NCBI GenBank assembly: GCA_964203225.1 | Contig: CAXNMK010000002.1 | Span: 609,664-673,663, forward strand | From: Kofleriaceae bacterium | GTDB taxonomy: Bacteria; Myxococcota_A; Polyangia; Haliangiales; Haliangiaceae | DNA: 64,000 nt | Direction of reading: 5' to 3' | Shown here: piece after piece, positions 1-10,592 of the stretch | Layout: each line of letters opens with the position of its first letter | Numbering within the stretch: position 1 is the first letter of the stretch | The notes under the pieces: model-generated | The model's database searches: none | Told to the model about the DNA's origin: nothing | The model's input: only the letters and a program-made list of their open reading frames with translations | Program-made: the position numbers and the translations under genes

Positions 1-941
1 GGCCGCCACTCGTCGACACGTTCTTCACGAACGTGTTCTCGTACAACGGCACGGCATGGACCGCGAACGCATCGACCGGCCATCCCTCGGTGCAGAGCGC
101 GACGATGGCGTACGACTGGGTCGCGAATGGGCTGGTCACGTTCGGCGGCGCGATGCCGGCCTCGCCGTTCACGAACTTCGACACGACGTGGGTGTGGAGC
201 CTGACCGGCGGCTGGCAACAGCGACCACCGGCGACGACGCCACCCGCGCGACGCGGCGCGCAGAGCGCCTACGATCCGGTACGCAAGCGCACCGTCATGT
301 TCAGCGGCAATCCCAGTGGCGGCGGCAGCATCGCGGACACCTGGGAGTGGGACAACACGAACTGGACGAACATCACGACGTCGACGGGCCCGAACGACCG
401 GATCGGCGGGCTCCTCTACTACAACTCCGACGCCGCGAAGGTATGCGCGTTCGGTGCGTCCGGCGGCCTCGCGAGTGAAGACCTGTGGGAATGGAATGGC
501 ATCGAGTGGACCGAGCGCATCGTGCTCGGAGCCATCCCCTCCAAGTACAAGACCGCCGCTGCGTACGACGCGGCGAACAAGGAGCTGCTGGCGTTCTCCG
601 GGCGAGACGCCGGCGGATCGGGCGGGCCGACCCAGGGCACGGTCATGCTCCAGTACCGCCCCAACGTGCCGGTCGAGACCTGCACGTCGGCCGATCTCGA
701 CTACGACAACGACGGCAAGCTCGGCTGTGCCGACGAGGAATGCTGGTCGGTGTGCAAGCCGCTGTGTCCGCCGGGCGTCACCTGCGCGCCGACCGCACCC
801 CGATGCGGCGACTCGACGTGCAACAGCCCCGTCGAGGACTGCAACATCTGTCCAGGTGATTGCGGCGCCTGCGCTGGCAAGTGCGGCGACTTCCATTGCG
901 ACACCGGCGAGACCGCCGCGCTGTGCCCCAACGACTGCTGA
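1..941 (+). CDS. Kelch/beta-propeller-like secreted protein with Cys-rich C-terminal module; 5' end lies outside the window
   Basis: The ORF is open to the window start and stops at 939-941. It has repeated W-x-W / GG / DxWEWD blades (TWVWSLTGGW, TWEWDNTNW, DLWEWNGIEW). The C-terminus carries about 20 Cys (CKPLCPPGVTCAPTAPRCGDSTCNSP...CPGDCGACAGKCGDFHCD), typical of myxobacterial Cys-rich repeats. Confidence 0.6.
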   Translation, partial: PPLVDTFFTNVFSYNGTAWTANASTGHPSVQSATMAYDWVANGLVTFGGAMPASPFTNFDTTWVWSLTGGWQQRPPATTPPARRGAQSAYDPVRKRTVMFSGNPSGGGSIADTWEWDNTNWTNITTSTGPNDRIGGLLYYNSDAAKVCAFGASGGLASEDLWEWNGIEWTERIVLGAIPSKYKTAAAYDAANKELLAFSGRDAGGSGGPTQGTVMLQYRPNVPVETCTSADLDYDNDGKLGCADEECWSVCKPLCPPGVTCAPTAPRCGDSTCNSPVEDCNICPGDCGACAGKCGDFHCDTGETAALCPNDC

Positions 942-1131
942 GGCAAGACCCGGGCCCTCCCAGGCTCCTGGACCTCGGTGTTGGGCACACCTCGCATGTC
1001 GTTGATCCACTTACATGGTCAAGCTCGACGAGCTGATCGTAGAATACACAATCGTGGCCGAACAAAAGTCTCCGCCAGATGAGGGCAACCCGGCAACCCA
1101 CCGGCGCACGGCTGCGGTCGCATCCGCCACG

Positions 1132-4038
1132 ATGGGGGCTCCACCCATTACCCGCTCGGTTCCACCGAGTGGTCCTCGGTCGCCGCCGCGACCCTCGTCG
1201 ACTTCGATCCTGGCGCCCGATCAGGTGTTCCCAAATCCCGCTGGCGGATCGGAGCGCAAGAAGGCCGACACCCAGGCACCACTGGAGTTTTCCGAGAACC
1301 AGCAGATCGGGCGGTTCGAGCTGATCCGCGAGATCGCACGCGGTGGTATGGGGCAGGTGTTCCTCGCTCGCGATACCAAGCTCGGTCGCAAGGTCGCGAT
1401 CAAGTTCCTGCTGCGCCCCGATCCGACCTTCGTCAGCCGGTTCGTCATCGAGGCTCGAGCGACAGCGCGCTGCACGCACGAGAACATTGTCACGATCTTC
1501 GAGGTCGACGAACACGATGGCCTGCCGTTCATGGTGCTCGAGTATCTCGAGGGCAAGACACTCAACGAGGCGTTCGAGACCAGGCCAGCGCCGCGCCAGT
1601 TCGCGGAGCTGATGGTGTCGGTCGCGCGCGCCCTCGAGCGTGCCCACGAGCACGGCATCGTCCACCGCGATCTCAAGCCGAGCAACATCTTCATCACCGA
1701 TCGTGGCGTGGTGAAGGTGCTCGATTTTGGAGTCGCGAAGTGTTTCGACAACCCGGTCGATGCGTTCGATCACGTGATCACCGCGACGGCATCCGGGAGC
1801 CGCGTGCCTCGCGCGCTGTCGGCGAGCTCCGACACGTTCGCTTCGGAGTACGTCACGTTCTCCGGTGGTGGCACGATGGTCGGCACGCAGCCGTACATGT
1901 CGCCCGAGCAGTGGGGCGCCGACGAGGTCGATCAGGCCTCGGATATCTGGGCGTTCGGCATCATGTTCTGGCGGGCGCTGGCCAAGAAGCATCCGGCCGG
2001 CTCGATGGCGCCCGACAAGTTACGCGCCAGGTTGTGCGATCTCGAGGCGCCGCTGCCGAGCATCCTCGCGGGCGATCCGACGCTGCCGAGCGACCTCGGC
2101 GCGATCGTCGACCGCTGCCTCTCGAAACGCAAGGCCGACCGCCCGACGGCGACCGACCTGGTCGCCGAGCTCCAGGCGTTCTTGCAACCGAAGGCGCGGA
2201 TCTCTGACGACGCCTGCCCGTACCGCGGGCTCGCCGCGTTTGGTGAGCGTGATGCAAAGTACTTCTTCGGCCGGTCGTCCGAGATCCGGACAGCGATCCA
2301 GCAGCTCGACGTCTGGCCCTTGCTCGCCGTGATCGGGCCGTCGGGTGTCGGCAAGTCGTCGTTCGTTCATGCCGGCCTCGCCCCCGCGATCCGCGACGCA
2401 GGCGGCAACTGGCAGATCCGGGTGCTCCGCCCCGGTCGCAACCCGCTCCAGAGCCTGGCCTCGGTCGTCGATGACGTCCTCGAGAGCAACGGGCAGGGTG
2501 TCGAGATGGTGGTCGCGCAACTGCGCGATGCGCCCGGGTTGTTCGGCGACATGCTGCGCAAGGCCGCCAAGCGTCGCAAGCACGAGGTGATGATCATCGT
2601 CGATCAGCTCGAGGAGCTGTTCACGCTGTCCGACGATGGCGAGGTGCGGGCGCTGTTCCTCGCGGCGCTGCTCGCGGCGGCGGACGATCCGAGCGCGCCG
2701 GTCCGGATCGTGCTGTCGATGCGCGCGGACTTCCTCGACCACCTCGCCGATCACAAGCAATTCATGGTGGAGCTCACGCGGGGGATGTTCTTCCTGTCGG
2801 CCCCCGGTCGTGACAACCTACGCGAGACCCTGGTGCGTCCCGCCGAGCTTGCCGGCTACGCGTTCGAGAACCAGGAGATCGTCGAGGACATGCTGCAGTC
2901 GGCGACCAGTCGAGGCGCGCTGCCGCTCCTCCAGTTCGCCGCGACCCAGCTGTGGGACGCGCGCGATCGCACGAGGAAGCGCCTGACCGCCGCCGCGTAC
3001 GCCGCGATGGGTGGCGTCGGCGGTGCGTTCGCGCGGCACGCCGATGAAGTCGCGGCGGCGGTCCCCAAGCACAGTCAGCTGCTGCTCAAGGCGATCATGA
3101 CCCGGCTGGTCACCCCCGAAGGTACGCGCGACGTCGTCGACCAGCGCGAGCTCGCCGGACTCACCGAGGACCAGAGCGAGGTCGCGCGGATCCTCGATCA
3201 GCTGGTTCGCGCGCGCCTGATCCACGTTCACAGCGACGACGTTCAGGGGGCGACCGTCGAGATCGTGCACGAGGTGTTGATCAGCGAGTGGCCGATGCTG
3301 GGCCGCTGGCTCGAGGAGGGTCACGCGTTGCGCGGGTTCATGCAGGAGCTCGGTCAGGCGGTGCGCCAGTGGGTCGCCCGCGGCAAGGCGAGCGATCTGG
3401 TGTGGCGCGGCGCGACCGCCCAGGAGGCGCTCGCCCTCACCAACCGCCACGTGCTCGATCTGTCCGCTGCGGAGCGCGAGTTCCTGCTCGAGGCCGAGCT
3501 CCACGCTGCGCGCGGCCGGCGCCGCAAGATGCTCGTGTTCGCGTCGATCTTTTCGGTGCTCGGGCTCGTGATCGCGGGGGGCGCGATCGCGGTCGTGCGG
3601 ATCTCGAACGCGCAGGAGGCGACCAACCAGCAGGCGATCGCCGCGCAGTCCGAAGCGAAGAAAGCCCGTTCTGCGGAGGCCGATGCGGCGCGCCAGCTCG
3701 ACGCCTTCAAGGCCGAGGAGCAACGCCGCGCGACCGCCGAGTTCGGGCGCAAGCAGGCGGAGGCCGCCGCCACGACCGCGAACCTCGCCGTCGATGCCTC
3801 GCGCGAGGAGCTGCAGCAGGCGAACCTCGATCTCCAGCGCACGCTCAAGGAGTCTCAGAATGACAAGGACCAGGCGCAGGCGCTCGCGGTCGCGGCCAAG
3901 GCGGCGGCCGAGATCGCGCGCAAGGCCACCGACGAGGCGAAGTCGGCGAACGCGAAGTTGCAGACCCTGCTCGCACAACAGAAGGATCGCGTGAAGCAAC
4001 TCGAGCTCGAGAAGAAGAAGATTGCGACCGGCCTGTGA
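1132..4038 (+). CDS. Ser/Thr protein kinase fused to nSTAND1-type P-loop NTPase, one TM helix and a C-terminal coiled coil
   Basis: Kinase motifs are present: [21 protein letters not shown] (1661-1690), DFGVAK and SPEQ. They are followed by the nSTAND1 hallmark CPYRGLAAFGERDAKYFFGR (2212-2275), Walker A GPSGVGKSS (2337-2363) and Walker B-like IIVDQLEELF. A TM helix (MLVFASIFSVLGLVIAGGAIAVV) and an A/E/K/Q-rich coiled coil run to the stop at 4038. The 5' end is uncertain. The ORF opens at 1015, but 1015-1110 is AT-rich with low GC3, so the ATG at 1132 is preferred. Confidence 0.85.
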   Translation: MGAPPITRSVPPSGPRSPPRPSSTSILAPDQVFPNPAGGSERKKADTQAPLEFSENQQIGRFELIREIARGGMGQVFLARDTKLGRKVAIKFLLRPDPTFVSRFVIEARATARCTHENIVTIFEVDEHDGLPFMVLEYLEGKTLNEAFETRPAPRQFAELMVSVARALERAHEHGIVHRDLKPSNIFITDRGVVKVLDFGVAKCFDNPVDAFDHVITATASGSRVPRALSASSDTFASEYVTFSGGGTMVGTQPYMSPEQWGADEVDQASDIWAFGIMFWRALAKKHPAGSMAPDKLRARLCDLEAPLPSILAGDPTLPSDLGAIVDRCLSKRKADRPTATDLVAELQAFLQPKARISDDACPYRGLAAFGERDAKYFFGRSSEIRTAIQQLDVWPLLAVIGPSGVGKSSFVHAGLAPAIRDAGGNWQIRVLRPGRNPLQSLASVVDDVLESNGQGVEMVVAQLRDAPGLFGDMLRKAAKRRKHEVMIIVDQLEELFTLSDDGEVRALFLAALLAAADDPSAPVRIVLSMRADFLDHLADHKQFMVELTRGMFFLSAPGRDNLRETLVRPAELAGYAFENQEIVEDMLQSATSRGALPLLQFAATQLWDARDRTRKRLTAAAYAAMGGVGGAFARHADEVAAAVPKHSQLLLKAIMTRLVTPEGTRDVVDQRELAGLTEDQSEVARILDQLVRARLIHVHSDDVQGATVEIVHEVLISEWPMLGRWLEEGHALRGFMQELGQAVRQWVARGKASDLVWRGATAQEALALTNRHVLDLSAAEREFLLEAELHAARGRRRKMLVFASIFSVLGLVIAGGAIAVVRISNAQEATNQQAIAAQSEAKKARSAEADAARQLDAFKAEEQRRATAEFGRKQAEAAATTANLAVDASREELQQANLDLQRTLKESQNDKDQAQALAVAAKAAAEIARKATDEAKSANAKLQTLLAQQKDRVKQLELEKKKIATGL

Positions 4039-5078
4039 GAAGCATCCTGATCATCGGCGTGCTGGTCGCGAGTGTGGGCGCCGCGAGGGCTGTCCCGGAT
4101 CAGCCCGCTTCCAAGAAGCCGGTCGAGCAGGTCGATCCCAAGCCGGTCGAACCGACGCCGGAACCGCCAGGCGACGCCGAGCACAAACCTTGGTACGACG
4201 GGGTTCCCGAGGCCACCCAGCAGCAGGCGCACGTCATCTTCGCCGACGGCAACACGCTGTTCTCTCAGCAGCAGCACGCCCCTGCGCTCGAGAAGTACCG
4301 CGTCGCGCTCGCGTTGTGGGAGCACCCGCTGATCCGCTTCAACCTGGCGGTGACCGAGATCCGGCTCGAGCGTGTCCTCGAGGCGGCTGACGATCTCGAG
4401 AAGGCGCTCCAGTTCGGAGCCGCGCCGTTCACGCCCGAGCTCTACCAGCAAGCACTCGACTATCAGTCCCTGCTCAAGGGCCGGGTCGGCTACATCGAGG
4501 CATCGTGTACCGCTCAGGCCAGCGTGCAACTCGACGGCAAGCAGTGGTTCAGCTGTCCCGGCACCAAACGCGTACGCGTGATCGCGGGCGAGCACACGCT
4601 CGTCAGCGAGCGACCGGGCTACCTGACCAACTCGCGGCGGGTGGTCGTCCCGGGTGGCAAGACCATCACCGAAAAGCTCGTGGTCGTGTCGATCGAGTCG
4701 GCGGTTGTCCTGGAATACCCCTATCGTCAATGGATCCCTTGGACGATCACCGCGACCGGCGCCGCGATCGCCCTCGGCGGTGCGGGGTCGTGGTTCGCGG
4801 GCAGGAACCAGATGACCGAGTTCGATGCCAACTTCTCACGCGCCTGCACGGTGACCGGCTGCGAACCGGATCTCTCACAACATCCCGCCTTGCGTGATCA
4901 GCGCGACTCCGCGGCATTCAAGGGCACCGTCGGGATCTCGCTGATGGTCGCGGGAGGTGCCGTCGCGGTCGGCGGCCTCGTGATGGCGATCATCAACCGA
5001 CCGAAACGGATCATGCCGAACATCGAGGTCACGCCGACCGCCGACGGGATCAAGACGCAGGTAGGCTGGCAGTTCTGA
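4035..5078 (+). CDS. PEGA-domain / TPR-like membrane protein, translationally coupled to the kinase-NTPase
   Basis: A GTG start overlaps the upstream stop (GTGA). It has a signal peptide, a helical TPR-like region, a PEGA-like block (RVRVIAGEHTLVSERPGYLTNSRRVVVPGGKT) and two C-terminal TM helices. Confidence 0.7.
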   Translation: MRSILIIGVLVASVGAARAVPDQPASKKPVEQVDPKPVEPTPEPPGDAEHKPWYDGVPEATQQQAHVIFADGNTLFSQQQHAPALEKYRVALALWEHPLIRFNLAVTEIRLERVLEAADDLEKALQFGAAPFTPELYQQALDYQSLLKGRVGYIEASCTAQASVQLDGKQWFSCPGTKRVRVIAGEHTLVSERPGYLTNSRRVVVPGGKTITEKLVVVSIESAVVLEYPYRQWIPWTITATGAAIALGGAGSWFAGRNQMTEFDANFSRACTVTGCEPDLSQHPALRDQRDSAAFKGTVGISLMVAGGAVAVGGLVMAIINRPKRIMPNIEVTPTADGIKTQVGWQF

Positions 5079-6196
5079 TGAGTGTCTGGCGTGGGTTGGC
5101 CATGGCGTTTGGACTCGTGGGCCTGGTGGGCGGCTGCAAAGGTGACCCGGACCCGACGCCGCAGCCCAAGCCGCTTCCGGGTCATTCCATCGCAGCTGTC
5201 CGCGCGCCACGACCGAGACTGTCGCAACGCGTCTTGCCGCAGCTGCCAACTCTGCCGCTCGCGGATGATCCCCGGCGCGCCAACAAGATCGCCCTCGGTC
5301 ACGCGTTATTCTTCGACAAGCGGCTCTCGGCGAACAGCGATCGCGCGTGCTCGTCGTGTCACGAGGCCCCGCGCGGAGCGAAGGAGACCGCTGGCGGTCC
5401 CGATCCGATCGCGATCGGATCGGGTGACAAGCCGCTCTCGCGACACGCCCCCGCGTTGTGGAATATCGCGTATGGACAGGGCGCATTCTACTGGGACGGT
5501 CGGGCGACCACGCTCGAGGCGACCACGAAGGCCGAGTGGCGCGGTCCTGCCATGGGCATCGGTGACAGGCTCGACACGAAGGCGGCCGCACTCGCCGCGA
5601 TTCCGGGCTACAGGAAGTTATTCGCCGCCGCGTTTCCCGGCGCGCCGATCACGGCGGAACAGGTCACGCAGGCGCTGGCCGAGTACGAGCGGACCCTGCT
5701 CTGCACCACCACGCCATACGACCGCTTCGCCGCTGGCGACAAGGCCGCGCTCACCGATCAGCAGCAGCGCGGCCTCGACCTGTTCCTCGACAAGGGCCAG
5801 TGCCTGAGCTGTCACGCCCCACCCTACTTCTCGACCGCGATGGGCCTCGATCCGGCCAGCAACACCGTCGGCTACCAGAACGTCGGGATCGGGACCGACC
5901 GCGCCGACGACAAGGTCGACCTCGGCCGCATGGCCGTGACCGGTGCCGCGATCGACTGGGCCGCGTTCAAGCCGCCGAGCCTGCGCAACGTGACGAAGAC
6001 CGCGCCGTATTTTCACGACGGTTCCGGCGCGACGCTCGATGCGGTCGTGCGGACCATGACGACCGGTGGGATCGCCAACAAGAACCTGAACCCGGCGATG
6101 ACCGACCGCGGCTTCACGGATGCCGAGCGCGCCGATCTGATCGCATTCCTCGGTGGCCTCGAGTGCCCCGACGCGGTCGTCGCAACGCTGCCGTAG
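5078..6196 (+). CDS. di-heme cytochrome c peroxidase (CCP/MauG family) lipoprotein
   Basis: The ATG overlaps the previous stop (TGATGA). It has a lipobox (LVGLVGGC), two CxxCH heme motifs (CSSCH at 5349, CLSCH at 5803) and the C-terminal LIAFLGGL signature. Confidence 0.85.
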   Translation: MSVWRGLAMAFGLVGLVGGCKGDPDPTPQPKPLPGHSIAAVRAPRPRLSQRVLPQLPTLPLADDPRRANKIALGHALFFDKRLSANSDRACSSCHEAPRGAKETAGGPDPIAIGSGDKPLSRHAPALWNIAYGQGAFYWDGRATTLEATTKAEWRGPAMGIGDRLDTKAAALAAIPGYRKLFAAAFPGAPITAEQVTQALAEYERTLLCTTTPYDRFAAGDKAALTDQQQRGLDLFLDKGQCLSCHAPPYFSTAMGLDPASNTVGYQNVGIGTDRADDKVDLGRMAVTGAAIDWAAFKPPSLRNVTKTAPYFHDGSGATLDAVVRTMTTGGIANKNLNPAMTDRGFTDAERADLIAFLGGLECPDAVVATLP

Positions 6197-6717
6197 CGCC
6201 TGGCTCTACCTTCGCAAGGTGGCATCGGCACGCTCTCCGCGCTACCGGTGGCAAGCGTCGCCGCGTCAACGGGATGCGGATCATTCGCCGCGGGCTCGAC
6301 GACCTGGACCGTCACGGGCTCGACGACCCGGACGGTCGCGGGCTCGATGACCAGCAGCGGCAGTTGGCCGTCGCCTGGCGGTGACGCGATGGCCACCGGT
6401 GGGCCGGCCAGTGGCGCGGTGTCGCGAGCTTGCGCGGACTGCCACGCGACGAATTATCGCCGCACGGGCGTGTAGCTGGCTCCATCACCCTGTCGACATC
6501 CGCCAGCGCTCCGAATTTCCCAACTTGTCCGATCTTCTATCGAACTGCGCAACCCCTCGTTATCAGATCAGTTCAGGAGCGCCGTCATGAACCCTGGGTG
6601 CTCGCGACGGAGGCCGCTCCGGGCGTTCGTCGCGCGCCGTACCGCCGTGCACCCGGGGCGCTCGCGAGTACGCCCCGGCGAGGAGGCGTCCAGCGGACGT
6701 GCGCCTCGGTCGCGACG

Positions 6718-7983
6718 CTAGCGCATGAACCGCAGGCCGACGCCGAGCACGAGCGCGCGGCCGCCGTACGACGCCGCCATGGTGTCAGGGCTGCTGTCGG
6801 GACTGGTGGTCTCGCGGCGCAGGATCCACAGGTGCTCGGCGAACGCGTCCGCGCTCCACGCGGGCGACACCGCGTAGCTCGCGCCTGCGGTCAACCCGAG
6901 GCGGTGGCCGTCGGGCGTGGTCGGCGACAGCCGGGAGGTGGGCACCGGCGACGGATCGACGTAGCCGCCGCCGCGGATCACGAGCCGGCGGTGCATCCAC
7001 TCGACGCCGGCGCGCACGCCCGTGGTGTTGCCCCAGTCGTTGCGCTGGACGGCGGTGTCGGTCGCGGCGCTCGCGAACGTGATGGTGGTGGCGCGGTTGA
7101 CGCTCCACCGCGTGTGCTCGACGTCGACGAGCGCGGTCATCGCGCTGCGCCGGTAGCGCGCGCCGAGCACGATCACGTCCGGCATGGTCATCGTGGTGCG
7201 CGCGGTCTGATCGGGCGCCTTGCCGGCGAACGCATCGGGCGTGGTGAAGTTCGCGTTGCCGTCGAGGTCCAGGTGGGTGCGGCCGCGGTAGGTCAGGGCG
7301 AGCGCGAGGTCGGCGCGCGGGACGTAATACGCGGAGGCGTCGAGGCCAACGCCGGTGCCATCGAGATCGAGGCGGACGTCGCCCTCGGCGTCGATGAAGT
7401 CGAGGTTGCGCGCGACCTGGAGCCGGGCGACGTCGAGGTGCACGCCCACCGCGAGCCGCAGCCGGCCGAGCCTGCGCGCGACGAACGGCGCCGCGCGCAG
7501 CACGCGCAGGTCGGACGCGACTGCCTCGGTGGCGCCCGGCCAGGTCGCCGGCCACGCCACGCCTCCACCGAACGGGACGCCCACGCTGATGCCCCCCGCC
7601 CACGCACCCTGGGCGAGGCTGGCGTCGAGGTGCGGTGGCGTCGACCACCGGCCCTCGCTGTCCGTGGTCCACGCGCCATCCGCGGCGCGCGCGGTGATCT
7701 GCGGTCGCGCGAGCACCAGCGACAGGCCGAGCCGCAGGCCGCCATCGTCGGCGAGCGCGGCCGGGGCGTGCCAGGCGGCGCCCGGATCGTCGTCGCGCCC
7801 GGCGCCCGCGCCGCCGGTGCCCGCGGACACCGCGGTCTGCTGGCCCACGGCGGTCCCGCCGGCGTGCGCGGTGCCGGTGAGGCCGAGCACGAGGGCGAGC
7901 GCACCCACGGCCGCACGACCCGGAACCCGGCCGTCCCGCGGGGGCCACCCGGCGGGCGCCGCGCCTGCATCGAGCGCGCTCAC
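6718..7983 (-). CDS. FadL/OmpP1-like outer-membrane transporter for hydrophobic compounds
   Basis: The GTG start at 7983 overlaps the stop of the upstream lipase (GTGA). It has a signal peptide (AAVGALALVLGLTGTAHA), amphipathic beta-strand periodicity and a C-terminal ...GVGLRFMR. The long Arg-rich extension of the 6718..9975 ORF was rejected. Confidence 0.65.
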   Translation of the reverse strand: MSALDAGAAPAGWPPRDGRVPGRAAVGALALVLGLTGTAHAGGTAVGQQTAVSAGTGGAGAGRDDDPGAAWHAPAALADDGGLRLGLSLVLARPQITARAADGAWTTDSEGRWSTPPHLDASLAQGAWAGGISVGVPFGGGVAWPATWPGATEAVASDLRVLRAAPFVARRLGRLRLAVGVHLDVARLQVARNLDFIDAEGDVRLDLDGTGVGLDASAYYVPRADLALALTYRGRTHLDLDGNANFTTPDAFAGKAPDQTARTTMTMPDVIVLGARYRRSAMTALVDVEHTRWSVNRATTITFASAATDTAVQRNDWGNTTGVRAGVEWMHRRLVIRGGGYVDPSPVPTSRLSPTTPDGHRLGLTAGASYAVSPAWSADAFAEHLWILRRETTSPDSSPDTMAASYGGRALVLGVGLRFMR

Positions 7984-10592
7984 GGCTGGAGCTCCCCGCT
8001 GAGGAAGTCCGCGAGCTCGCGTACCCCGCGGAAGTACGCGGGCTCGAGCGGGATCGTGATGAACCCGTGCTCGCCGAGGTAGTCGCGGCGCGGCGCGCCG
8101 GTGACCTGCTGGAGCAGCTTCGTCGCCGCGTTCGGGATGATGAAGTCGAGCGTGGCCATCTGGATCAGCAGCGAGCGGGCACCGGTGATCGGGCCCAGGT
8201 GCTGCGGATCGACCGCGTCCATGAACCAGTGCGCCACGGTGAGGAACCGCCGGCCGTCGTAGCTGTCGCGCTCGATGCCCTGGCGCGTGAACAGCGCGTC
8301 GAGCTGGGCGCTGAAGAACGTGGAGTCGTCGAACATCGGGATCAAGTCCGCGCCCGGCACGTTGAGGACCGCGCGCTCGATGTCCGGATCGGTGCCGAGG
8401 AACACCGCGCCCATGATCCCGCCGAGCGACTGACCGGCGTAGAGCATCCGCGAGGTGTCGACGGGATGGCCGAGGACCGGCTCCCACGCGCCGCTGCGCA
8501 GCGAGCGATCGAGCGCGCCGAGATCGATCAGCGCCTGCTGGAAGTGGTCCTTGCTGTTCGAGATGTGGTCGATCTCGAGGAACACGGCGCCGGAGGCGAC
8601 GGGCATGTCGATCACGCCCCACGTCGCGAGCGCGTTGCCCTGGCCCTGCGCGTCGACGCAGCGGCCCTCGTCGTTGCACGTGGTACCGGCGCGGCACGGG
8701 TTCAGGGACGCGAGGCTGCCGGTGAACGGGTTGACCACGGACACCGGCCCGCCCCGCGCGCAGTAGGTGCGCTCGCCGTGGTACGGAAAGTCGATCGAGA
8801 TCGTGGCGTAGCCCTTGGCGGCGAGCGCGCTGCCGACGGCGAGCACGAACCGGCGCTCGGTGACCAGGCCGTGGCCGAACATCACCACGGGCATCGGCCC
8901 GGGCGCCGGGTCCGAGGGCACGGTCATCGTGAACCGGACGTCCTCGAGCACGTGCCCGCCGTCGCCGCGCCACGCGCGCGTGATCGGATCGAGGAACACC
9001 GGCGAGCTGATCGTGCCGTGGACGACACGGTCCACGTTCAGCAGCGAGCCGATGCCGAACGGGAAGTCGAGCAGCGCCTGCCCGGGGCTCTGGGTGGTGA
9101 CGCTCGCCGGATCCGCGGGCACGTCGAGGCGCGCGGCGGTCTCGCGCAGCGCGCGCAGCGGGGCGGTCACGCTCATCGTGGTGAACGGCCACGCGGCGAG
9201 CAGGTCGTCGCGGCCGAGGACATCGAGCGCCGCGGCGAGCTTGGCGCGCGAGGCCTCGAGCTTCGCGGCGTCGCGGTCCGTGATCGACGGGATCTGGCTC
9301 CGGCCGCCCTCGAGCAGGGGGGCGCGCGCCGCGAGCAGCGCGCCGATCGGCATCGCCACCACGGGCACGCCGTCGGCGTCGCGCACGCCCGCGCTCACCA
9401 CCACCGCGTAGGTCGTGGTCTCGGCGAGCCGACCCGCCTTCGGCGTCACCACCAGGTGGCGGCGATCCGCGAGCAGCTCCACGGAGGCCGGCACGCGCAC
9501 GGGCGTGCCCTCGATCTGGTAGATCGCCACGGTGCTCTCGCCGACGGTGCTCGGCGTCACCGGCTGCGTCAGCTCGAACAGCTGGCTGCCCGACAGCGCC
9601 GCGCCATCGAACGCGGCGAGCGCGCGCTTGGCCTCGGCCTCGAGATCGGTGTCCCACGGCGCGACCGGCGCGTCGATCTTGCCGGTGGTCGGATCGAGGA
9701 ACAGGTCGATCGGCAGCGGCATCCGCTGCGACGGCTGGTCCATCGCCAGCTCGGTGTGGGTGGTCACGGTGAACGCCCACAGCGCGGCGATCTCGGCGCG
9801 CGGCAGGCCGGTGGCCTCGAACCGCGCGAACGCGGGCGCCAGATCGAGCCGGATGTCCTCGAGCTGCTGCGCGTTCGCGCGGCGCTCCTCGGCGGTGACG
9901 CCGGGGAACGCGCGCTCGTGCGCTGGATCCGTCAGCGGCGTGGTCAGCCGCAGGAAGTAGAACGCGGCGTCGCACTCCACGCGCTCGCCATCGAGCCCGG
10001 CCAGGCCGCGCGCTCCGCCGCGCGCCACCGCCACGTAGCGCTCGCCGCGCTCCCAGCCGGTGCGCGGGGGATCGATGGTGAGCGTCCGACCGTCGGCGGA
10101 CACGTGGAGGCGGACGTCCTCGACGCGGTCGGGCTCACCGGTGCGCGGCCAGTGCCACACCTGCACGGTGCCGCTCGACACGCTGGCCGGATCGATCGCG
10201 CCGGTCAGCTCGAGCGTCGCGGAGGCCAGGGTCGACCAGCCGTCGAGCGTCTCGAGGAAGGTGAACAGCTCCGCCTCGGCGGGCGTCAGCGCTGCGCGCT
10301 CCTCGGCGGTGTCGTTGGGCAGGTCGAGGCGCGCGGCCGCGGCGTCGCGCAGCACGTCGGTCGGCATCGGGATCACGCGCGCGTCGGGATCGAACCGCGC
10401 GTGGATGACGGCGGGCGGCGGATCGAGCGTCAGGCTCGAGCACGCTCCGAGCCCGACGAGGAAGGTGACGGTGAGCTGGTGGAGCGTGGTGATGGCAGCA
10501 GGTCGCACGGGCGGGCCCCCCCCCCTGTTGGTTGGGGCCGGTTGTGGCGCGCGGGGGGGCCCCCCGTCAACACCTTGTTGACCAACGTTCAA
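7980..10592 (-). CDS. secreted alpha/beta-hydrolase (lipase/esterase) lipoprotein
   Basis: It has a lipobox (FLVGLGACSS) and a nucleophile elbow GQSLGG. The protein is long and non-Arg-rich. The start is unclear: only a TTG at 10592 is in frame before the signal peptide, and the 5' end contains C10 / G7 / C6 homopolymer runs (10516-10565). Confidence 0.7.
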   Translation of the reverse strand: MNVGQQGVDGGPPRAPQPAPTNRGGGPPVRPAAITTLHQLTVTFLVGLGACSSLTLDPPPAVIHARFDPDARVIPMPTDVLRDAAAARLDLPNDTAEERAALTPAEAELFTFLETLDGWSTLASATLELTGAIDPASVSSGTVQVWHWPRTGEPDRVEDVRLHVSADGRTLTIDPPRTGWERGERYVAVARGGARGLAGLDGERVECDAAFYFLRLTTPLTDPAHERAFPGVTAEERRANAQQLEDIRLDLAPAFARFEATGLPRAEIAALWAFTVTTHTELAMDQPSQRMPLPIDLFLDPTTGKIDAPVAPWDTDLEAEAKRALAAFDGAALSGSQLFELTQPVTPSTVGESTVAIYQIEGTPVRVPASVELLADRRHLVVTPKAGRLAETTTYAVVVSAGVRDADGVPVVAMPIGALLAARAPLLEGGRSQIPSITDRDAAKLEASRAKLAAALDVLGRDDLLAAWPFTTMSVTAPLRALRETAARLDVPADPASVTTQSPGQALLDFPFGIGSLLNVDRVVHGTISSPVFLDPITRAWRGDGGHVLEDVRFTMTVPSDPAPGPMPVVMFGHGLVTERRFVLAVGSALAAKGYATISIDFPYHGERTYCARGGPVSVVNPFTGSLASLNPCRAGTTCNDEGRCVDAQGQGNALATWGVIDMPVASGAVFLEIDHISNSKDHFQQALIDLGALDRSLRSGAWEPVLGHPVDTSRMLYAGQSLGGIMGAVFLGTDPDIERAVLNVPGADLIPMFDDSTFFSAQLDALFTRQGIERDSYDGRRFLTVAHWFMDAVDPQHLGPITGARSLLIQMATLDFIIPNAATKLLQQVTGAPRRDYLGEHGFITIPLEPAYFRGVRELADFLSGELQP

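Follow-up and report, generated by a model that had tools for sequence, protein, structure and literature searches.

What is gained by placing a nucleotide-dependent switch between a protein kinase and the membrane, and does a gene that overlaps the 3ˊ end of such a kinase gene belong to the same device? This question is raised by a locus in a Kofleriaceae bacterium (Myxococcota_A), within a stretch of 64,000 nucleotides (nt) that spans positions 609,664 to 673,663 of the forward strand of contig CAXNMK010000002.1 (assembly GCA_964203225.1) and is hereafter called the window. One open reading frame (ORF), whose product we term protein 1, encodes a Hanks-type Ser/Thr kinase, an nSTAND1 nucleoside triphosphatase (NTPase), a single transmembrane (TM) helix and a helical tail. 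It is followed on the same strand by a partner gene, ORF2, encoding a TPR/PEGA-like membrane protein. Sequence conservation supports the conclusion that the two genes form one functional unit, and we hold with moderate confidence that their products constitute a transmembrane signalling module that converts an envelope cue into protein phosphorylation. The genes are arranged as follows.

1015 to 4038, plus strand: gene for protein 1 as the longest ORF (1007 amino acids (aa) from ATG 1015)
1054 to 4038, plus strand: probable extent of the same gene (994 aa from GTG 1054)
4035 to 5078, plus strand: partner gene ORF2 (347 aa, GTG start)
4035 to 4038, plus strand: GTGA start/stop overlap (GTG 4035 to 4037, TGA 4036 to 4038), the translational coupling junction

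Conservation of the gene pair

A preliminary description of this DNA, made from the letters and their ORFs, had proposed that the two genes are translationally coupled and that their products may form a membrane-associated module. Both proposals are supported by the distribution of the pair. In a scan of one genome per species, 34 loci contained an ORF2 relative, and every one of them belongs to a metagenome-assembled genome (MAG) labelled Kofleriaceae, Haliangiales, Myxococcales or Polyangia. An exact-sequence look-up added one more locus (L001), whereas look-ups of this kind with P0005 and with the window protein gave no match. A kinase-nSTAND1 gene directly adjoins the ORF2 relative in 34 of these 35 loci, the exception being a locus where ORF2 lies at the end of its contig. 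The overlap at 4035 to 4038 is real, and 27 of the 31 loci with co-directional genes, the window included, retain a stop/start overlap of this kind (ATGA or GTGA). The remaining four carry a spacer of 8 to 12 nt, with a purine run resembling GGAGG or GGGGG in three of them. The genes also stay together when their order changes, being divergent in L029 to L031 and L037 and having ORF2 first in L032.

Linkage extends to distant relatives. A metagenome scan seeded with ORF2 relatives that are 30 to 41% identical to the window protein (alignment A5) returned 80 loci, of which 17 are flanked by 3 kb or more on each side. In 12 of these 17 a kinase-nSTAND1 gene lies no more than 6 kb away, usually in convergent orientation; four have another Hanks-type kinase and one has neither. 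We treat the pair as a unit because adjacency and the 4-nt overlap are conserved and because linkage persists through these changes in gene order.

More than 100 full-length relatives of protein 1 at 59 to 71% identity all carry Pkinase and nSTAND1 domains, and their named sources are Myxococcales, Kofleriaceae or Myxococcota, plus one MAG labelled Acidobacteriota. Two complete pairs (L016 and L019) lie about 10 kb apart on a single 24-kb contig (JBLMXA010000831.1) from a MAG with the Acidobacteriota label; since all other matches are from Myxococcota, the probable cause is a mistake in binning or, failing that, transfer. When 1.84 billion cluster representatives were searched with a profile, 648 clusters fell into the ORF2 family, a large one, at E ≤ 1e-30, and many ORF2 relatives were found on contigs equal in length to those of kinase relatives. 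This family has no Pfam family of its own, and its members at 55 to 68% identity have no precomputed Pfam domain save one TPR_2 match.

Domains and predicted topology

Residues of protein 1 are numbered from ATG 1015 unless the 994-aa numbering is stated. Its features, all on the plus strand, are listed here.

1318 to 2166, plus strand: Hanks-type Ser/Thr protein kinase domain, residues 102 to 384 (Pfam Pkinase, PF00069, E = 6.1e-42)
2215 to 3393, plus strand: nSTAND1 module, residues 401 to 793, with CPYRGL..FFGR, Walker A, Walker B and sensor-1, then putative helical and winged-helix parts
2215 to 2274, plus strand: CPYRGLAAFGERDAKYFFGR motif, residues 401 to 420, as quoted in the preliminary description
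2335 to 2361, plus strand: Walker A, GPSGVGKSS, residues 441 to 449 (motif position)
2593 to 2616, plus strand: Walker B, IIVDQLEE, residues 527 to 534 (motif position)
2716 to 2733, plus strand: sensor-1, SMRADF, residues 568 to 573 (motif position)
3511 to 3597, plus strand: RGRRRK arginine-rich stop-transfer patch and single TM helix, residues 839 to 861 (Kyte-Doolittle 2.41)
3601 to 4035, plus strand: Ala/Gln/Lys/Glu-rich helical tail, residues 863 to 1007, about 145 aa, predicted extracytoplasmic
3967 to 4035, plus strand: conserved tail-end motif LLAxxKxRVKQLExEKxKIxxGL, kept in L026, L031 and L032

Pfam and hydropathy analyses bear out the order of kinase, nSTAND1, TM helix and tail that had been read from the sequence. 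The N-terminal domain is a eukaryotic-type kinase, as proposed: its hidden Markov model (HMM) score exceeds the cut-off, and it contains a Gly-rich loop, the beta3 Lys (VAIK, residues 127 to 130), the HRD loop (HRDLKPSN, 217 to 224), DFG (237 to 239) and the APE-like motif SPE. Between DFG and SPE, the activation loop carries a variable, Ser/Thr-rich insert of 51 aa. The assignment of the central domain to nSTAND1, made from the CPY...FFGR signature, the P-loop and the hhhhDQLEE motif, is strongly supported by a profile search, the check that the preliminary description had named as able to refute it. PF20703 covers residues 402 to 793, equivalent to profile positions 1 to 378 of 379 (E = 2.9e-105; 353.5 bits versus a cut-off of 27.1), a match that chance does not explain. 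Walker A, Walker B and the sensor-1 Arg are invariant in alignments of 14 and of 40 sequences, and the domain has intact catalytic motifs. An AlphaFold2 model built on the 40 homologues has a predicted local distance difference test (pLDDT) score of 85 to 95 over this region.

The C-terminal part had been described as a membrane-spanning coiled coil. One TM helix and long helices are indeed present, but heptad periodicity is weak, and for this reason we prefer the term 'long helical stalk'. The last 142 residues have no Pro, are 27% Ala, and are rich in Gln, Lys, Glu and Leu. The AlphaFold2 model contains a helix that runs through the membrane (805 to 913 in the 994-aa numbering) and a second long helix (920 to 991). 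The stalk is predicted to be extracytoplasmic because the kinase and NTPase require cytoplasmic nucleotide and because positive charges lie N-terminal of the TM helix. With this predicted N-in, C-out orientation, protein 1 has the layout of a receptor-type Ser/Thr kinase: a cytoplasmic kinase, a single TM helix and an extracytoplasmic C-terminus.

Identity to the window protein among the 40 homologues declines along the chain, from 82% in the kinase core to 72% in nSTAND1, 64% in a conserved helix that joins nSTAND1 to the RGRRRK patch (the post-STAND helix), 52% in the TM helix and 41% in the stalk. The length of the stalk is nevertheless fixed (occupancy 0.98), and free variation is confined to the N-terminal tail and the activation-loop insert. 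Distant kinase-nSTAND1 proteins retain the Arg-rich patch, the TM helix, a helical tail of about 130 aa and a C-terminal motif of the form ...R.KQLE.E..KI.... The retention of the extreme C-terminus of the stalk across such relatives suggests a specific contact outside the cytoplasm.

The partner protein has the following features.

4035 to 4091, plus strand: signal peptide (sequence prediction)
4209 to 4478, plus strand: TPR domain, residues ~59 to 148 (helix-turn-helix repeat fold; profile matches sub-threshold)
4485 to 4679, plus strand: PEGA-like, putative beta-sandwich of seven strands, residues ~151 to 215 (PEGA evidence at family level)
4731 to 4802, plus strand: TM1, Gly/Ala-rich
4845 to 4862, plus strand: invariant CxxxxC in the loop between TM1 and TM2
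4932 to 4994, plus strand: TM2, strongly hydrophobic in all relatives
4995 to 5075, plus strand: conserved tail NRPxRxLPxxEVxPxxGGxxAxVGWxF, residues 321 to 347, ending in an aromatic residue

ORF2 had been called a PEGA/TPR membrane protein. The TPR domain, signal peptide and TM segments agree with this label, the TPR profile matches of ORF2 itself being sub-threshold in sequence searches, but the PEGA part is clearer in relatives than here. In ORF2, PEGA (PF08308) reaches 13.1 bits (E = 0.09) against a gathering score of 20.8. It is matched at E ≤ 1 in 43 of 56 ORF2 relatives that are 28 to 51% identical, with scores at the homologous position of 34.1 bits (P0330), 20.4 bits (P0311) and 17.4 bits (P0388). 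An hhalign comparison of the ORF2 family profile with one bona fide PEGA sequence was not significant. The best PEGA score among the relatives (41 bits, P0274) belongs to an additional N-terminal domain at a non-homologous position and was not taken as evidence. Because the match in ORF2 itself is sub-threshold, 'PEGA-like beta-sandwich' is the defensible wording.

The loop between TM1 and TM2 is about 40 aa long and contains about five Lys or Arg residues in addition to the invariant CxxxxC, and two further invariant Cys residues (C158 and C174) lie in the beta-sandwich. From its sequence, ORF2 is more likely to be a hairpin of two TM helices with both ends outside the cytoplasm. PF20712 (CyanoTRADDas_TM), a 2-TM domain that the authors who named nSTAND1 have also reported from conflict systems, is weakly matched by the 2-TM region of seven of the 56 relatives, and the best match (E = 0.0022) does not reach the cut-off. 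These matches are probably a compositional effect of the Gly/Ala-rich helices.

One further element bears on where protein 1 begins.

1016 to 1045, plus strand: sigma70-like promoter match, TGGTCA-18-TAGAAT (consensus match only), inside a low-GC stretch

The preliminary description had taken a conspicuously AT-rich stretch at about 1000 to 1110 as the probable site of a promoter and 5ˊ untranslated region rather than of the coding start. The fraction of G and C (GC) dips at 981 to 1100, to 0.47 to 0.57 in 40-nt windows versus about 0.68 elsewhere, and is 0.47 to 0.53 over the promoter match; one such match was observed versus 0.1 expected in shuffled sequences. A promoter inside this stretch is plausible and would place the transcript start just 5ˊ of GTG 1054. 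However, the dip is modest and the probable start codon lies within it. Many homologues share an N-terminal peptide, KSPPDEG...R.AAVA[SA]ATMG.P (nt 1066 to 1140, residues ~18 to 42), and the window sequence MAEQKSPPDEG..AAVASATMG aligns with the N-termini of P0003, P0005 (MNDSKSPPGEG..AAVAAATMG), P0006 (MADGKQPEKK..AAATM), P0012, P0017 and P0074. Since this peptide starts at about nt 1063 to 1066, coding should begin by about nt 1063, and GTG 1054 is probably the best start candidate rather than ATG 1015 or ATG 1132, possibly on a leaderless transcript or one with a very short leader. ATG 1132 was rejected as it falls within the conserved peptide and is GTG in a 99%-identical relative (L038). 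The peptide may be a docking or regulatory motif, and the rest of the N-terminal tail of about 80 aa is variable and predicted to be disordered.

Envelope signalling and its alternatives

The mechanism that we favour runs from the envelope inward. Protein 1 would hold its kinase and nSTAND1 domains in the cytoplasm, cross the inner membrane once and extend a helical stalk into the periplasm. ORF2 would be made in step with it through the stop/start overlap and exported, with the TPR domain and PEGA-like sandwich in the periplasm and the Gly/Ala-rich helical hairpin serving as an anchor. An envelope or extracellular cue would be read by the TPR/PEGA-like module jointly with the stalk, and the resulting change would reach the NTPase by way of the membrane helices and the post-STAND helix. 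The NTPase would then exchange nucleotide and oligomerise like other STAND/NLR switches, so that kinase domains meet, trans-autophosphorylate their long, Ser/Thr-rich activation loops and go on to phosphorylate cytoplasmic targets. TPR domains commonly bind C-terminal peptides, which makes the conserved end of the stalk a candidate TPR ligand. We assign the sensing role to the partner and the stalk because the TM helix and stalk occupy the position of the predicted sensor in the published nSTAND1 systems and because the sole recognisable binding domains are the periplasmic ones on ORF2. The domain content, the intact catalytic motifs, the kept linkage and coupling of the genes and their vertical inheritance in several copies are shown by the data; in this scheme the topology is predicted, and we infer the direction of signalling, the contact between the proteins, the oligomerisation and the nature of the cue.

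Several observations weigh against this proposal. The nSTAND1 clade takes its definition from predicted counter-invader systems, which include kinases among their effectors, and PADLOC kinase models for two defence systems match the kinase domain of protein 1. The topology of ORF2 is ambiguous, since TM1 is hydrophobic enough to pass the threshold in just five of the 28 close relatives and 35 of the 56 distant ones. The modelled ectodomain of protein 1 has low confidence (pLDDT 46 to 79), in addition to its weak heptad periodicity. When the nSTAND1 region was compared with PDB chains, as a single sequence and as a 14-sequence profile, it gave only generic P-loop/ABC matches. All relatives found come from MAGs or metagenomes, with no cultured host among them, and we know of no demonstration of STAND oligomerisation for any nSTAND1 protein.

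The strongest competitor, which we nonetheless consider rather unlikely, is that the NTPase responds to a cue in the cytoplasm, or else is a simple timer or scaffold, and that the TM helix and tail merely localise the kinase or span the periplasm in the manner of TolA, with ORF2 as a substrate, anchor or negative regulator. The tail does resemble TolA domain II in its Ala, Lys, Glu and Gln content and has no recognisable ligand-binding fold, and the CxxxxC loop of ORF2, which is probably cytoplasmic, could contact the cytoplasmic domains of protein 1, as could its conserved tail. ORF2 relatives in the wider family also pair with kinases that lack nSTAND1. However, the periplasmic TPR and beta-sandwich domains, which are typical binders of ligands and peptides, are the most conserved parts of ORF2, and the retention of the stalk's extreme C-terminus in distant relatives points to an extracytoplasmic contact. 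In addition, STAND proteins without a C-terminal sensor region are unusual.

A role in phage defence or abortive infection, in which nSTAND1 detects an invader and the kinase is a toxic or alarm effector, appears distinctly improbable to us. Such a role has been proposed for other nSTAND1 proteins, and some defence kinases have been shown to act in this way. The preliminary description had mentioned conflict systems, and these are the literature setting of the domain: nSTAND1 was named as one of the central NTPases of predicted counter-invader systems, whose proteins carry N-terminal adaptor or effector domains, including S/T/Y kinases, and C-terminal lectin-type FGS domains as predicted sensors, and whose genes show linkage to EAD adaptors and a range of effectors (Kaur, Iyer, Burroughs and Aravind, 2021, eLife 10:e70394). 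The kinase-nSTAND1 family is also multi-copy, and the PADLOC models PD-T4-6 and Mad6 match its kinase domain, as noted above, while the candidate model PDLC01088 covers residues 108 to 973. The former are generic kinase-domain matches, and protein 1 does not belong to PD-T4-6 or to Mad6 of the MADS system, its score with the NCBIfam MAD6 model being 123 bits versus a cut-off of 460. Neither ORF2 nor the gene that follows it (ORF3) has a PADLOC match. Relatives of nSTAND1 on Streptomyces and cyanobacterial plasmids are 30 to 37% identical and are annotated with HTH, caspase, trypsin-like or WD-repeat domains, the first three as N-termini; however, no plasmid homologue spans at least 80% of a query comprising the STAND, TM and tail regions, and none covers the TM helix and stalk.

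The layout of the published systems is likewise absent here, the C-terminus being a TM helix and helical ectodomain rather than FGS. Clustering of neighbouring genes over 36 loci revealed no caspase, TIR, EAD, nuclease or restriction-type genes; rather, it recovered a sigma factor, membrane proteins and DUF4215-propeller proteins, with synteny within paralogue groups. The region in the sensor position would lie outside the cytoplasm, away from phage proteins or DNA, and is fixed in length, and the catalytic cores are 70 to 80% identical across the family. The link to conflict systems therefore describes where the clade was defined, but neither the neighbourhoods nor the conservation of the kinase-nSTAND1/ORF2 family resemble such a system. 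Judged from sequence, a vertically inherited regulatory module is a better fit to this pattern than an arms-race defence gene, and it is the conserved catalytic cores together with the lack of caspase, TIR and EAD genes nearby that lead us to favour envelope-to-cytoplasm signalling. nSTAND1 proteins should thus not always be taken as defence genes.

That the two genes are unrelated and overlap by chance in this genome has only the frequency of short overlaps in high-GC genomes in its favour, and is scarcely credible given adjacency in 34/35 loci, overlap in 27/31, three other gene orders and linkage among relatives of 30 to 41% identity.

The pair occurs in at least three paralogue groups, each in its own conserved neighbourhood, and six MAGs have at least two copies. 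One group has a sigma-70-family gene and a membrane protein of about 840 aa upstream, the second has a giant DUF4215-Kelch gene, and the third a giant DUF4215-NHL gene; the window pair belongs to the DUF4215-Kelch group. The sigma-70-family gene (regions 2 and 4) is upstream of the kinase gene in 13 to 14 loci (L001, L004 to L008, L012, L016, L018, L021, L024, L027, L033 and L035), and directly so in L001, the only locus with called genes. It is preceded in that group by the ~840-aa protein, which is polytopic and has no Pfam match. The kinase of this group may have the sigma factor as a downstream target. A gene resembling Phage_T4_gp19 (contractile tail tube) recurs downstream of the pair, at a distance of about 5 kb, in L001 (14169 to 15113), L008, L018, L019, L024, L027 and L035 (group A).

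The giant DUF4215-propeller genes stand beside the pair in six loci of the Kelch type (L038, L002, L013, L025, L028 and L034) and seven of the NHL type (L014 to L017, L019, L020 and L022), as raw counts. Upstream of protein 1 in the window, an ORF at 33 to 941 (plus strand) covers no more than the C-terminus of a giant protein that is secreted; in L038 (3 to 5552) this protein has at least 1849 aa and combines Cys-rich DUF4215 repeats with beta-propellers of the Kelch type. A fragment of an RCC1-propeller gene lies upstream of a distant ORF2 relative (P0262). The DUF4215-propeller proteins may act as a ligand or a third component, or their genes may just be common in myxobacteria. One more gene follows the pair in the window.

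5078 to 6196, plus strand: ORF3, 372 aa, di-haem cytochrome c peroxidase of the MauG/MbnH type

ORF3 matches CCP_MauG (E = 1.3e-38), falls below the cut-offs of all NCBIfam equivalogs and carries a signal like that of lipoproteins (..LVGGC). A single base is shared between its ATG and the ORF2 stop, although a gene caller applied to L038 starts it 24 nt later. ORF3 was considered as a further component of the module and rejected, since no locus other than the window and L038 carries it. Beyond it, the minus-strand translation of 6718 to ~8000 resembles by eye a FadL-like outer-membrane beta-barrel, followed by an 870-aa gene at 7980 to 10592 (minus strand), and GC reaches 0.75 to 0.83 over 6600 to 8100.

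A bolder form of the signalling proposal is that the pair constitutes a transmembrane NLR-like receptor, in which a STAND switch is triggered from outside by the helical ectodomain and a TPR/PEGA co-receptor, with a fused Hanks kinase as output. We offer this only tentatively, as a possibility somewhat doubtful in itself. If true, it would merge two logics that are separate in eukaryotes, those of surface receptor kinases and of cytosolic NLR switches. The giant DUF4215-Kelch and DUF4215-NHL proteins could then be extracellular ligands or contact sensors; if they are, social myxobacteria would use the module for signalling at the cell surface or on contact with kin or prey.

Comparison with known systems

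Full-text literature searches did not find a kinase-nSTAND1-TM protein or its TPR/PEGA-like partner described, and the arrangement is assembled from known parts. The nSTAND1 counter-invader systems share with protein 1 the NTPase clade, the PYxGLxxF...FFGR signature, Walker A and B, and the possibility of an N-terminal S/T/Y kinase. They differ in having cytoplasmic FGS C-termini and links to EAD and effector genes, whereas the family described here has a TM helix and extracytoplasmic stalk, a syntenic neighbourhood free of effectors, a fixed TPR/PEGA-like membrane partner, and the kinase as the only N-terminal domain seen.

Receptor kinases of the PknB/StkP/PrkC class have a short juxtamembrane linker where protein 1 has a STAND NTPase of about 400 aa. 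Their ectodomains consist of PASTA or other ligand-binding domains, in contrast to a helical stalk whose putative binding domains reside on a separate, co-translated protein. The tail itself recalls TolA domain II, which also follows an N-side TM anchor as a long, Pro-free helix of low complexity. However, protein 1 has no Pfam TolA match at E ≤ 10 and no TolA C-terminal domain, and its stalk is attached to signalling enzymes.

Kinases combined with NTPase switches are known from Mycobacterium tuberculosis PknK (a kinase with a MalT-like STAND domain), from ROCO/LRRK2 and from the plant kinase-NB-LRR protein Tsn1. Like protein 1, these place a kinase and a nucleotide switch that is expected to gate it in one polypeptide. 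Unlike protein 1, they are soluble, have cytoplasmic repeat sensors, and draw their switches from other clades (MalT/AAA_16, Roc GTPase and NB-ARC, respectively). To our knowledge, none of them has the switch between the kinase and a membrane anchor.

If the proposed direction of signalling is right, STAND switches can receive their input across a membrane, the TPR/PEGA-like/2-TM proteins, a large family lacking annotation, gain a role as kinase co-receptors, and the pair offers a mutable system for studying how nucleotide-dependent oligomerisation gates a Hanks kinase. STAND/NLR NTPases are normally seen as cytosolic sensors, and bacterial receptor kinases as a kinase, a linker, a TM helix and a sensor. 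In the kinase-nSTAND1/ORF2 family, a complete STAND switch is instead predicted to lie between the kinase and the membrane, with the likely binding domains carried by a co-translated partner.

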